From Octopus vulgaris (lineage: Eukaryota): DNA of 64,000 nt. How positions within the stretch are numbered: position 1 is the first letter of the stretch; every line of letters begins with the position of its first letter. A model generated the notes under the pieces. It did no database searches. It saw only the letters and a list, made by a program, of their open reading frames with translations, and had not been told where the DNA came from. Location of the stretch: NCBI GenBank assembly GCA_951406725.2, contig OX597814.1, positions 11,346,001-11,410,000 of the forward strand, in the 5' to 3' direction. Below, piece after piece: positions 9,650 through 33,297 of this stretch. A program made the position numbers and the translations under genes.

Positions 9650-10215
9650 CCTTTCTATTGTAGGGACAATGCGTGAAACTTTGGGGGAGAGGGTTAGTCG
9701 ATTACATTGGCCCCAGGGCTCAACTGGTACTTATTTTAACGACCCTGAAAAGATGAAAGGCAAAGTCGACCTCGGCGGAATTTTGACACAGAACGTAAAG
9801 ATGGATGCCTATTTCTTTATTACCCACAAGGGGCTAAACACAGAGGGGACAAACAAGGACAGACAAACCGATTAAGTCGATTATATCGACCCCAGTGCGT
9901 AACTGGTACTTAATTTATTGACCCCGAAAGGATGAAAGGCAAAGTTGACCTCGGCGGAATTTTGACACAGAACGTAAAGATGGATGCCTATTTCTTTACT
10001 ACCCACAAGGGGCTAAACACAGAGGGGACAAACAAGGACAGACAAACCGATTAAGTCGATTATATCGACCCCAGTGCGTAACTGGTACTTAATTCATTGA
10101 CCCCGAAAGGATGAAAGGCAAAGTCGACCTCGGCGGAATTTTGACACAGAACGTTAAGAGGATGTCGCTCAGCATTTTGTCCGATGCGACAGCGATTTCG
10201 CCACCTCGCTGCTTT
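9650..10215 (-). mobile_element. SINE family A trimer (179-bp period)
   Basis: Three copies of gatgaaaggcaaagtcgacctcggcggaattttgacacagaacg; two 'tail-1' ends and one 'tail-2' end. Confidence 0.9.
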
Positions 10216-10379
10216 TAGCTGGAGTAAAATAATGGCATTTAGAAATGTGTAACTTTGTACACCACAGCTAAAAGTCCTAAATGCACTAAGATTATTCAAA
10301 ATAAATCAAAGTGGTTCGAAACTATAATTTTCCTTTGCCAGCTATACATATGCACAACTTATGCTCATGTGACATAAAA

Positions 10380-10950
10380 ATCCCTTCGACATTACTATCT
10401 CGATTCCTCGGACTCATAGGATGGGTTGCCCAGTGTTCATGGTATCAAGTAACCGAGATAAACAACATTTATTCTGAACGTCGCATGTGATTCAATTACA
10501 GTAATTGAAACCAAGATCTTGTAATCATGAGTACAACACCCTAACCACTAGGCTACACACCCTCACTTGTGTAATATATCTACATAAATACCGGCTATTA
10601 TCACCTTATAAATCTTCTTTAATTTCCATTGGTATCGACAAATTTTATGTCACAAAATCTTTGCTACAAACGTTTACTATATCTTAAATTATGCATAGCC
10701 AGTTTCTGTATTCAGAGTTCAGTTCCCGCTAAGGTCAATTTCACCTCACATCTTTCTGGGGTCAGTTAAGTAAAGTATCAGTCAATCACAACGATATCAG
10801 AAACAATTAAGGACAGTGGTTAGCAAATCGGAGAAAAATCTTTCGCTATATTTCTTCCGGCTTTTTACGTTCTGAGTTCAAATCCTGCCAAGGCCGACTT
10901 TGTCTTTCATCCTTTCGGAGTTGATAAATGAATACCAGTCAATTATTCCC
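10380..10950. mobile_element. Cluster of old SINE remnants (minus-strand tRNA-headed copy 10380-10570; family A fragments 10705-10945 on +)
   Basis: Degenerate gttctgagttcaaatc..gactttg..tttcatcctttcgg motifs. Confidence 0.55.
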
Positions 10951-12494
10951 ATCATCCAAAAACAAGGAATCAACAACATTGTAAAACGAATTAACAATTG
11001 CCGTTGGATACATTCACTCTCCATATGGTGCTATGGTGTTTCATAGCCTGAGGAAACGTGTAGTAGTCATTTGTCGTTAGATGTTTCCGAACTAACCCCT
11101 TCGCTATATTCGTTTCCACGAGTATGTAAGTTTGTTCATGCGTACTTTTGTTTAAGCGATTTTTTTAATCCCATGTAAATATAATGCTAGTATTTCCCAA
11201 ATTTTGACCATATATCGTGTATTGTACACGATAAACAAGTATGTATATGATTATGCGTGTGTGTGTGCGTGTATATATATATATATATATATATATATAT
11301 ATACACACATTTTATATATATATATATATATATAAAATTATATATATATATATATATATATATAACACACACACACACGCATAATATATATATATATATA
11401 TATATATATACACATACAGACACACATATATATAGAGAGAGGAAGAGAGAGAGAGGAGATGATAGATAGATAGATTGATAGATATACACAAATAAAATCA
11501 CACATACGCATGCATATGTATGTGTGTGTATGTTGTGTGTGTGTGTGCGTGTGTGTGTATGTGTGTGTGTGTGTGTGTTTGTGTGTGTGTGTGTGTGTGT
11601 GTGTGTGTGTGCGTGGGTGCGTATATGTTACTATGCATGTATATTAAAATATTAAAATACTGAAAAGTATCGCTGTTCTTTACCTTTCTGCTGACTGTAC
11701 CGTATTTTTGAGGCAATTAATTTTATAAATAAATAACATGAAGTAAATTAATTAAATGCATAGCAATTTTAATATCGATGTAATTAAGCTGATTAGCTAG
11801 TTGCAAGGCGAGGAGGGGGCTGTAATTCTTTCTGATTCATTAGAGATAATATTGATCTACGTGTATATGTGCGCGTGTGTTGATTTATGTGTATCTATGT
11901 AAAAGTATAAGAATACGAAAGTGAGGTGATGTATATGTATGTATGTGTGTGTGTGCGTGTGTGCGTATGTGTGTGCGTATGTGTGTACGATTGTGAATGT
12001 GTAATTGCATGTGTGTTTGTGTTTGCCCTTGCATACACACATGCTTAATGTTTCGTTATAGTTTCTGCCTTTAACCAAATTTCACAAGATATTGGCCAAT
12101 CCTAGACTATAAATGACACAAGCCCAATGTGTCGCTCAGTGGAATCTAACCGAAACTTTATGGCTGTGAAGCGAAATTCTTATTCATACAGCCAAAAGAG
12201 AACTAACATGAGGTAGAACGTAGGTTAATAATTCTGATTGTTTATCTATTTGGATGCGTAGAATTATTATCACGTATGCACGTCAGTGTGCGTGTGTGTA
12301 TGTGTGTGTGCATGCGCCCGCGTATGTGTAAGACTGAGATTGCATATGTGTATTTATGCGTATCTGTGTTTGTAAGAGAGTATAGTTTTTAACACACATA
12401 CACATTTAGAATAAGTGCGAAAAGTAGACACAGCATGCAAGCCCATGGGTTATATGATATATCACTAGAACCTAATATTCAGAAAAGGGATAAG

Positions 12495-12720
12495 GCAACA
12501 TGCTGGCAGAATCGTTACAGCACCGAGCAAAATACTTAGCGGTATTACATCCGTCTTTACGTTCTGTGTTCGAATTCAGCCGATGTCGACTTTGCTTTTC
12601 ATCCCTTCGGAGTCGATAAAATAAGTACCAGTTGAACATCAGCATCGATGTAATCGGCTTACCTTCTCCCCCGAAATTATTGGCTTTGTGCCAAAACTTG
12701 AAGCCAATATTCAGAAACAA
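12495..12720 (+). mobile_element. SINE family A, diverged monomer with tail-2
   Basis: gctggcagaatcgttacagcacc..gtcgactttgcttttcatcccttcggagtcgataaaataagtaccagt. Confidence 0.8.
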
Positions 12721-30870: not shown

Positions 30871-31655
30871 ATGATATAAAAGCTGAAGACATCGCCAGTC
30901 GGTTCTTCTGTCGGTTTAGTTACAAAATATTGAAAAGGCTGTTAAGAGCTTTCAAATTCATGGGATTAAGCATTTTAGCGATTGATTGAATCCACACACA
31001 CACACACACATACACATGCAGTTATGAGCATACACACAGATATGCGCATGCGTAGATATGTTGAAGCACGCGCATACGTATACTCATATAAGCAGACACT
31101 AGAGTACGCGTGCATGTGTATACACTCAATACGAAGGAGGAAAGGATGTAGACCATAAGATGCAGCAGTAGCAGCAACAGTAGTAGTAGTAGTAGTAGTA
31201 GTAGTAGTAGTAGTAGTAGTAGTAGTAGTAGTAGTAGTAGTAGTAAGAGGAGGAGGAGGAGGAGGAGGGGGATTGAAAACGAAAATTTGGATAACGAAAA
31301 GAAAGAAAGAAAGAAAGGAAGGAAGGAAGGAAGGAAGGAAGGAAGGAAGGAAGAAAGAAAGAAAGAGAGAAAGAAAGAGAGAAAGGAAAAAAGAAAGAAA
31401 GAAAGAAAGAAAGAAAAAAGAAGGAATGAAAGAATTAATCTGAGCGAAAACAAAAGTTACGTTAGCAATCGTTATTGTTCGGTTCAAATCTCAGATGGTG
31501 GAATGTAGAATGGAAAGAACTCGAAAGAAAGCGCCGTACTTGTATTTAGTGAAGTCAATTTACACCCTTAAACCAATCGCCAACTTAGAAAACTTTGGTC
31601 TTCACCCTTCCAGGGCCATATATTATAACCATATTATTACAGTGAGATTAATACA

Positions 31656-31885
31656 TATCTCTTTATTACCCACAAGGGGCTAAACACAGAGCGGACAAAC
31701 AAGGACAGACATAGGTATTAAGTCGATTACATCGACCCCAGTGCGTAACTGGTACTTAATTTATCGACCCCGAAATGATGAAAGGCAAAGTCGACCTCGG
31801 CGGAATTTGAACTCAGAACGTAACGCAGACGAAATGCCGCTAAGCATTTCGGCCGGCGTGCTAACGTTTCAGCCAGCTCGCCGCC
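31656..31885 (-). mobile_element. Full-length young SINE family A (tail-1) with 15-bp TSD
   Basis: Head ggcggcgagctggctgaaacgttagcac and B-box-like gagttcaaattcc; TSD agtgagattaataca at 31641-31655 and 31886-31900. Confidence 0.93.
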
Positions 31886-32682
31886 AGTGAGATTAATACA
31901 ACCAACTAATATCCCTCTCTCAATTTTTTTTTCCATTCTGCCAAAATTTAACAGAGTCAAAGGAAGAAGCCCCATAACTTGCGGGAACTACTACCGAAAG
32001 AAACTGTCATTCTTCGACTACTGCAATAGAAACCAATGTTGATAAAAAAATTTTAAATTACAAAAAACCTCAGTGCTATCATGTTAAACCGAATGTACCG
32101 CCGCTCAAGATTATATAAACAATTCCTTTGACGGATTTATGTGTAGATTCTTTCCTCGCATTTTTACTCCGAAATACTTGGGTTTAAACCCAGACGAGTG
32201 TGGAAGAAAATTCTCTCTTACAGTAAAAGGTGATTCCCATTGAGGAAGGCTAAAGAGCCAGAAATGTGCATCTGTTGTTTCCCAATGAGGATTGCTGAAG
32301 CGTCAGAAACGCACGTCTGTGAATACGATAGGGGGAAGCACCGGGCAGATATGGTGTTTTTACACATTCTATCATAAGAGAGAATTTTTTTCTTCACGGT
32401 AACTGCACTGAATTTACCTTTAGAAGTTACTATGTGCCACAAACATATTAACTTAAAGTTCGTTTATTCCTAATCCCCGTATGGTGCTCCTACTGGTCTC
32501 CCCCACTCTCTCTCTCTCTCTCTCTCTATATATATATATATATATATATATATATACAGAGAGAGAGAGAGAGAGAGAGAGAGGCAATTCGAGGATGTTA
32601 GATCCACATTAGGGATTATATAATCCTCAAAATTCTAGTGCTTAATCACCATGATATGTTAGGGTTTTTTGTATTAATACCT

Positions 32683-33297
32683 ATTCTTTCTATTCTAGGC
32701 ACAAGGCCCAAAATGTTTGGGGAGGGGGCAGTCGATTAGATCGACCCCTGTATGCAACTAATACTTAGTTTATCATCCCTGAAAGGATAAAAGGCAAAGT
32801 CGACCTCGGCGGAATTTGAACTTAGAACGTAAAGACAGACGAAATACCGCAAAGCATTTCGCCCGGTGTGCTAACATTTCTTATTTCTTTATTGCCCACA
32901 AGGGGCTAAAGATAGAGGGGGACAAACAAGGACAGACAAGGAGATTAAGTCGATTACATCGACCCAGTGCGTAACTGGTACTTATTTATCGACCCCGAAA
33001 GGATGAAAGGAAAAGTCGACCTCGGCGGAATCTGAACTCAGAACGAAAAGACGGACGAAATACCTATTTCTTTACTACCCATAAGGAGCTAAACACAGAG
33101 AGAACAAACAAGGACAGACAAATGGATTAAGTCGATTATATCGACCCCAGTGCGTAACTGGTACTTATTTAATCGACCCCGAAAGGATGAAAGGCAAAGT
33201 CGACCTCGGCGGAATCTGAACTCAGAATGTAGCGGCAGGTGAAATACCGCTAAGCATTTCGCCCAGCGTGCTAACGTTTCTGCCAGCTCGCCGCCTT
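32683..33297 (-). mobile_element. SINE family A trimer: head-body-tail1 / body-tail1 / body-tail2
   Basis: Three gtcgacctcggcggaat cores; junctions at ~33064 and ~32881. Confidence 0.92.

Follow-up and report, generated by a model that had tools for sequence, protein, structure and literature searches.

Target choice in retrotransposons that lack long terminal repeats (LTRs; non-LTR elements), and the tandem repeats that can follow from it, have been described in several systems. A short interspersed nuclear element (SINE) is regarded as target-specific when more than 20% of its copies are flanked by one type of repeat, and SINEU-3 of crocodilians, which relies on Tx1-type machinery, prefers a Mariner element and forms tandems by sequential insertion (PMC4494074). 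In R2Ol and R1-type elements, the RNA carries downstream target sequence, and pairing of this stretch to the cleaved DNA fixes where copying begins, with higher efficiency for longer pairing (PMC6795142, PMC6007223); repeated insertion of R1 and other non-LTR elements at the same site yields dimers, which are later enlarged through unequal exchange (PMC5932611). SINE-derived satellites of squamates (PMC10702118) and the TSD1-(SINE)n-TSD1 arrays (TSD, target-site duplication) of the blood clam (PMC11481361) consist of one head, several truncated bodies and one flanking duplication, and both were put down to unequal recombination. Here, we present a 64,000 nt stretch of the Octopus vulgaris genome (contig OX597814.1, positions 11,346,001 to 11,410,000; hereafter the window) with three arrays of a SINE whose copies, carrying a tail here called tail-1, appear to land at two fixed positions inside the head of their own family.

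All three arrays lie on the minus strand, as the original prediction from the bare sequence had it, and its junctions were correct to within one base (Table 1). As the ruler for head and tail positions we used the first unit of the 33-kb array (33297-33065, 233 nt), in which tail-1 ends in AAAGAAATA at position 233. In three of the joins the tail-1 end (9989, 9810 and 33065) is followed directly by head position 50, starting with GG (9988, 9809 and 33064), and in the other two (18731 and 32882) by position 17, starting with AGAA (18730 and 32881). Judged by eye, an A-box-like motif encloses position 17, and position 50 falls between it and a B-box-like motif. The terminal units of two arrays had been noted to carry a different tail, and tail-1 is absent from all three, two of which have clear tail-2 types and one a decayed tail. 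The unit has the properties of a SINE, namely a non-coding sequence of 233 nt, more than 100,000 tail-1 ends in the genome, flanking target duplications and a 3′ tail that aligns with the 3′ ends of two L1-type long interspersed nuclear element (LINE) subfamilies. Its core may resemble the Meta domain. Scans with ARAGORN for tRNAs and with Rfam gave no genuine match, the A- and B-box-like motifs having been seen by eye, and an Rfam scan of 32600-33400 with E up to 10 returned no hammerhead or hepatitis delta virus (HDV)-like ribozyme, only two chance bacterial matches. A SINE motif search in two of the three supplement files of PMC4824008 gave no match.

The junctions are sharp throughout the genome. 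An exact pattern search of the 2.8-Gb genome detected 101,678 tail-1 ends, of which 29,189 are joined to head position 50 and 2,147 to position 17, with 0 matches for the reversed-pattern controls; the mapping of tail-1 ends that had been proposed as a check thus gave the two expected peaks. At least 31,336 ends (31%) are therefore joined to a family head. The bases following the tail were GG in 58,376 cases, TA in 14,712 and AGA in 10,378. In an unbiased sample of 40 stretches of 10 kb each (400 kb), chosen regardless of the repeat, 11 of 38 tail-1 ends were found at position 50, one at position 56 and 26 in other DNA, and 11 of the 29 elements with a whole tail-1 had a head junction. Both shares exceed the 20% mentioned above. 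The junction is thus sharp and common, yet most tail-1 copies land outside heads.

Monomers located in unique DNA have a target duplication that directly follows the tail; its first bases are frequently GGTAT, AGAAA or TATAT, and it is 11-24 nt long with a mode of 15-16 nt (24/66). The antisense strand of the SINE core provides a minor third site, GGTAC, with 631 strict matches compared with 29,189 at position 50, which argues that nearness to a SINE is not the cause of the targeting of position 50. The tail-1 copies at L184-L198 landed on GGTACT of the antisense core and form inverted SINE pairs. Base identity at position 50 was excluded from all junction tests because most loci had been chosen on that base; at this position C replaces G in 69 of 405 heads of the sampled loci, a possible escape from the GG landing site.

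Some further insertions and arrangements stood out. At three loci (L012, L015 and L023) tail-1 copies are inserted at GGTACTGGC within another dispersed repeat family. At three others (C4:48767038, C20:14033344 and C27:25454613) just the last 11-12 nt of tail-1 lie between a head piece and position 50; such minimal insertions are accompanied by a duplication of head sequence that varies in length. The SINE head alone (positions 1-64) is present in eight tandem copies with a period of ~64 nt at G000:C10:17996023-17996501.

The units downstream of the junctions are older than those upstream. In 65 arrays ending in a unit without tail-1, the rate of rare bases in the core was 0.086 in the last unit and 0.042 in the first (p = 3e-9), and the last units carry several tail types, so that descent of all multimers from one or two multimeric masters, named in the original prediction as the outcome that would speak against insertion, does not describe these data. 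Furthermore, 88 strict matches genome-wide, compared with the 29,189 seamless junctions, show a complete second head after a piece of a first one. We examined 30 of these and found true nested insertions in L154, L155, L161, L166, L172 and L178, in the order host head, 15-17 nt duplication, full new copy and duplicated stretch again; in L178 a deletion of the host is present on both sides of the nested copy. Bases private to the host recur in the upstream unit in 22 of 141 cases at positions 50-95 and in 10 of 242 further on (2% when shuffled), and decayed host heads survive in the 9.7-kb and 18.7-kb arrays. The sequence variant that the original prediction had noticed in all units of the 9.7-kb array is unique to it (3 occurrences in the 2.8-Gb genome); its interpretation as a long target-site duplication did not hold in plain form, because the host-derived stretch spans 31-63 nt and a normal duplication 11-20 nt. 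The older terminal units with their mixed tails, the true host duplications and this unique variant together make it very probable that tail-1 copies do enter existing heads of the family, and site-specific or homology-assisted insertion at two sharp positions is thereby supported. A further suggestion, that the inserted copies regain an internal promoter for RNA polymerase III (Pol III), does not apply generally: donors are mostly full length, arrays whose terminal units are old mostly have young heads, and the 18.7-kb join deletes part of the A-box-like motif.

Transcripts of the family would be expected to extend beyond the tail. Termination by Pol III requires a TTTT-type signal. TTTT is absent from the majority (consensus) sequence of the family, and the tail would therefore not halt a Pol III transcript. 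Traces of such run-on are found in the genome as copies whose tail is followed by 14-66 nt belonging to the next unit; at L053 and L220, 29 and 26 nt of the next unit are retained ahead of the duplication in unique DNA. We compared the first five bases of the two copies of 52 target duplications, excluding loci chosen on the right flank. Among 21 informative mismatches the copy behind the tail matched the run-on in 19 and the other copy in 2 (p = 2e-4), i.e., the first bases of the duplication are overwritten toward the run-on. Donor-type bases at 63/65 were detected in 16 of 42 informative terminal tail-2 units versus 6 of 50 monomers. A search for private variants of the last unit of L230 identified a source-progeny pair, as L231, on another chromosome, is identical to L230 over 224 nt, beginning at position 76 in unit 1 and ending at position 115 in unit 2. 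The match ends 66 nt into the second unit of L230, within a TTTT created by mutation at L230; it is flanked by a full head downstream and by an in-register switch to another copy upstream. The simplest reading is that three RNAs were chained in one recent event, and the lack of homology at the right end of the match argues against gene conversion. At L163 two full copies with a 16 nt run-on between them lie inside one duplication. Nine matches, too few for a test, showed long run-on followed by a full head; several of them terminate in runs of T or in extra A's.

The LINE that shares the tail was found among 536 tail-1-like matches in the sampled loci, 12 of which lacked the core, two of these being the 3′ end of a LINE. 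This LINE has 5,328 exact tail copies in the genome, and CATATCT forms the end of 28 of 30 copies, almost all of which continue into (TATC)n. Its open reading frames (ORFs) encode proteins of 680 amino acids (ORF1) and 1149 amino acids (ORF2), the latter with apurinic/apyrimidinic (AP) endonuclease, reverse transcriptase and zf-RVT domains (PF03372, PF00078, PF13966) and human L1 ORF2p as the best structure match (E 1e-53). Many intact and identical copies exist, and the family, with its many intact ORF2 copies, looks active. A genome-wide protein search with this LINE returned no family other than its own. From the L1-type domains and the microsatellite targeting we infer membership in the Tx1 clade by the description in PMC4494074, and the original suggestion of Tx1-type machinery is in this sense supported. 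The copy at the start of the window is likely a relative of the partner, and the last ~43 nt of the second LINE fragment (Table 1) are the closest tail-1 match seen, closer than the L370-type LINE. Tail-1 and the LINE tail fold into a similar small hairpin with non-significant z-scores. At L349 and L368 the LINE tail and a short TATC run are joined directly to a 5′-truncated piece of the same LINE family.

We propose, with a probability of about 60%, that run-on RNA anneals to the cleaved target and there primes its copying by the protein of an L1/Tx1-type LINE, leading to the joins at the two fixed head positions. RNA without a terminator would run past the tail into the next unit, and the duplications beginning right after the tail, with their first bases overwritten, would bear its trace. 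For a source located in front of position 50 or 17, family heads would be the best-matching targets; progeny landing there would become sources with the same run-on, so that the aim would be heritable and self-reinforcing. The far end of the new DNA would then pair with the homologous host, giving a seamless join with a variable crossover, after which either head may survive and a visible duplication with a second head would be rare. Owing to the same homology, the enzyme would be able to pass from one RNA to the next in register and link them into a chain, as seen once, and longer arrays may also have been enlarged by local duplication. On this account the aim would be inherited through the RNA rather than fixed by protein alone. 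We advance more tentatively, at somewhat less than even odds, that this is a natural RNA-guided aiming loop in which the sequence behind the tail serves as the guide and is handed to the progeny by the target duplication. If true, the loop is locked on the family's own head, and the family homes to itself, swaps old heads for young ones and chains transcripts with an unchanged protein.

Insertion does not account for every multimer: some instead arose by chaining of RNAs or by DNA duplication. Between neighboring tail-1 units, private bases are shared over the whole length in ~21-25% of cases (50/199, 39/184 and 100/478; 2% when shuffled). In the 9.7-kb array, units 1 and 2 both carry the host-derived stretch, with no more than 4 differences in 167 positions between them; one is therefore a local duplicate, and we read this array as one seamless insertion, probably followed by local duplication or by re-insertion of the locus's own transcript. 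The arrays of the window have 2-3 units and 8 of the 11 arrays in the unbiased sample have one junction, unlike SINE-derived satellites with at least four uniform inner units; a few arrays of 5-7 units exist. Rolling-circle copying of a circular RNA as the main route was rejected, given that units differ and last units come from other subfamilies.

The specificity might instead reside in protein, with one or more Tx1-type LINE endonucleases cutting GGTATT and AGAAAC in the SINE head and the run-on as a mere consequence of source position. Tx1 targets are set mainly by the endonuclease, SINEU-3 following Tx1-Mar (PMC4494074), and the tail-sharing LINE is both L1-type and site-specific. An endonuclease would also fit the tracking of landing class by the tail variant (the variable tetramer begins with T in 166 of 185 GG ends and with C in 51 of 63 AG ends), a linkage that different partner LINEs would explain as well as run-on does. 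However, among 110 exact tail-1 ends, chosen irrespective of the following sequence, position 50 accounted for 49 and GGTATT sites outside the family for 8, although the family contains only 35 of the 231 GGTATT sites in the unbiased sample; the hexamer is thus used per site ~34-fold less elsewhere (~16-fold on the heptamer GGTATTT), a figure inflated because it counts junctions, to which array growth adds, and drawn from ends that come largely from one chromosome end. In addition, the target (19 sites) carries its information at positions +1 to +6 downstream of the cut and has little of it upstream, the three landing classes GG, TA and AGA would need several partners, and L231 shows run-on RNA in use. 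Run-on leaves direct traces, and protein specificity as the only or best reading is not supported; we regard it as unlikely, with a real chance of being right, and note that the accounts overlap, since run-on pairing and endonuclease specificity can both hold. Quite improbable, in our estimate, is the absence of any homing into DNA, with multimeric sources copied whole, template switches from RNA to RNA and unequal exchange. The twofold divergence and mixed tails of terminal units, the host duplications in L178 and others, the decayed host heads at 9.7 and 18.7 kb and the old terminal tails present at matching loci in organisms E and F are at odds with this account, although a single flanking duplication does enclose whole arrays, adjacent units do share private bases over their full length, and L231 and L163 were chained without a host. 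Private variants of five old units had no full sibling elsewhere, which is a weak argument because later mutation would hide many; the searches also gave one partial progeny and, in one further search, four one-mismatch matches. An assembly artefact or the chance adjacency of an abundant repeat is very hard to credit: tandem repeats can be mis-assembled, but units differ within arrays, and the two exact junction bases recur at tens of thousands of places with empty controls.

Several results weigh against insertion steered by run-on. Arrays with an old last unit mostly have a young head, with a rare-base rate of 0.084 in 11 arrays versus 0.192 in 11 old monomers, as copying of whole arrays would predict, and the age of the head follows that of neither the first nor the last unit (rho 0.22 and 0.21, both non-significant; 0.35 for the first unit in another comparison). 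The age of the target duplication likewise showed no correlation with that of either unit. Flanking duplications with at most one mismatch were found in 21 of 65 tail-2-ended arrays versus 3 of 31 tail-2 monomers, consistent with some arrays having been copied as a whole. The host head is often replaced by the new copy, or else a number of arrays arose in one step. Contigs from organisms D, E and F, compared at window positions 9100-11200 and at L087, revealed no empty allele, none of them bridging either array; contigs of these species covered the flanks and the old terminal tails at both loci, and the organism E match at the 9.7-kb locus ends at 10166, exactly position 50, which we take as a hint only. 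Moreover, the overwriting proves that the run-on was copied and not that it selects the site, and L230-L231 is a single case. The LINE, whose tail is 76-86% like tail-1, targets (TATC)n and not the SINE head, and two pattern searches for a LINE tail at position 50 gave SINE variants only (among the 10 of 26 and 3 of 55 matches read).

Table 1 Features of the window, listed by array and followed by the control copy and the LINE sequences.
Feature	Positions	Strand	Observations
9.7-kb array, left copy of 14-nt target duplication enclosing the array	10220..10233	-	identical 14-mer at 10233 and 9649
9.7-kb array, unit 1	9989..10215	-	12 rare bases in positions 1-49 of the old host head; private host sequence to ~80, followed by young core and tail-1
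9.7-kb array, unit 2	9810..9988	-	begins at head position 50; near-copy of unit 1; tail-1
9.7-kb array, terminal unit	9650..9809	-	host body starting at position 50; tail of an older type; matching locus in organism E also has head and tail
9.7-kb array, right copy of 14-nt target duplication	9636..9649	-	
18.7-kb array, decayed host head	18935..18949	-	positions ~3-17; shared GCA joins head to donor
18.7-kb array, donor unit	18731..18934	-	5′-truncated at about position 30; tail-1 end
18.7-kb array, terminal host unit	18580..18730	-	resumes at head position 17; rare bases 19/119; decayed tail
33-kb array, unit 1 (reference)	33065..33297	-	full head, A-box-like (13-27), B-box-like (75-88), core, tail-1
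33-kb array, unit 2	32882..33064	-	from position 50; tail-1
33-kb array, terminal unit	32683..32881	-	from position 17; tail-2; private variants unique in genome
Monomeric tail-1 copy, control for normal insertion	31640..31900	-	perfect 16-nt target duplication starting directly after tail
L1-type LINE copy, 3′ end resembling tail-1	1..3649	-	young; 99% identical to L370; 5′ end in TAGA microsatellite
3′ fragment of second LINE subfamily	14915..15460	-	between TATC runs; 73% to L370 over 447 nt (DNA)

The findings bear on how far target choice in non-LTR retrotransposons is due to the endonuclease and how far to RNA pairing, which becomes testable from one genome. If the run-on steers insertion, the LINE protein would be a candidate for insertion aimed by the end of an RNA. 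They also call for caution, as repeat libraries and age estimates in this genome blend old hosts with young donors. In the literature that we searched, no SINE homing to its own head came up; Repbase-type libraries and the octopus SINE paper of 1994, which may describe dimers, lay outside this search. Target-specific retroposition is itself known, as is each of the ingredients, and their closing into a self-targeting SINE loop was not found in print.

In layout, with a putative tRNA-type head, a central core and a LINE tail, the family resembles octopus OR1/OR2 and the Meta and CORE superfamilies (PMC4824008, PMC4758252, PMC5804259). As in SINEU-3/Tx1-Mar, a SINE prefers another repeat, Tx1-type machinery is involved and tandems form by sequential insertion; unlike in the crocodilian family, where the target is a Mariner element and tandems retain the target duplication between whole copies (PMC4494074), the present SINE targets its own head, with mostly seamless joins. 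The pairing of downstream sequence on the RNA with cut DNA is shared with R2Ol and R1-type elements, but these are autonomous LINEs with a fixed site in ribosomal DNA (PMC6795142, PMC6007223), whereas our SINE is non-autonomous and its run-on matches its own head and varies by lineage. Repeated insertion at one site likewise underlies R1 dimers, in which the duplicated target stays between the units and outside the element (PMC5932611), unlike in the octopus arrays. These arrays share one head, several truncated bodies and one flanking duplication with those of squamates (PMC10702118) and the blood clam; the inner units of the clam arrays are cut at the tail too (PMC11481361), whereas every octopus inner unit keeps a complete LINE-derived end and the last units belong to other subfamilies. 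At tens of thousands of loci, the octopus SINE thus points to retrotransposition as a route by which dispersed SINEs become tandem arrays, a transition usually ascribed to unequal recombination.

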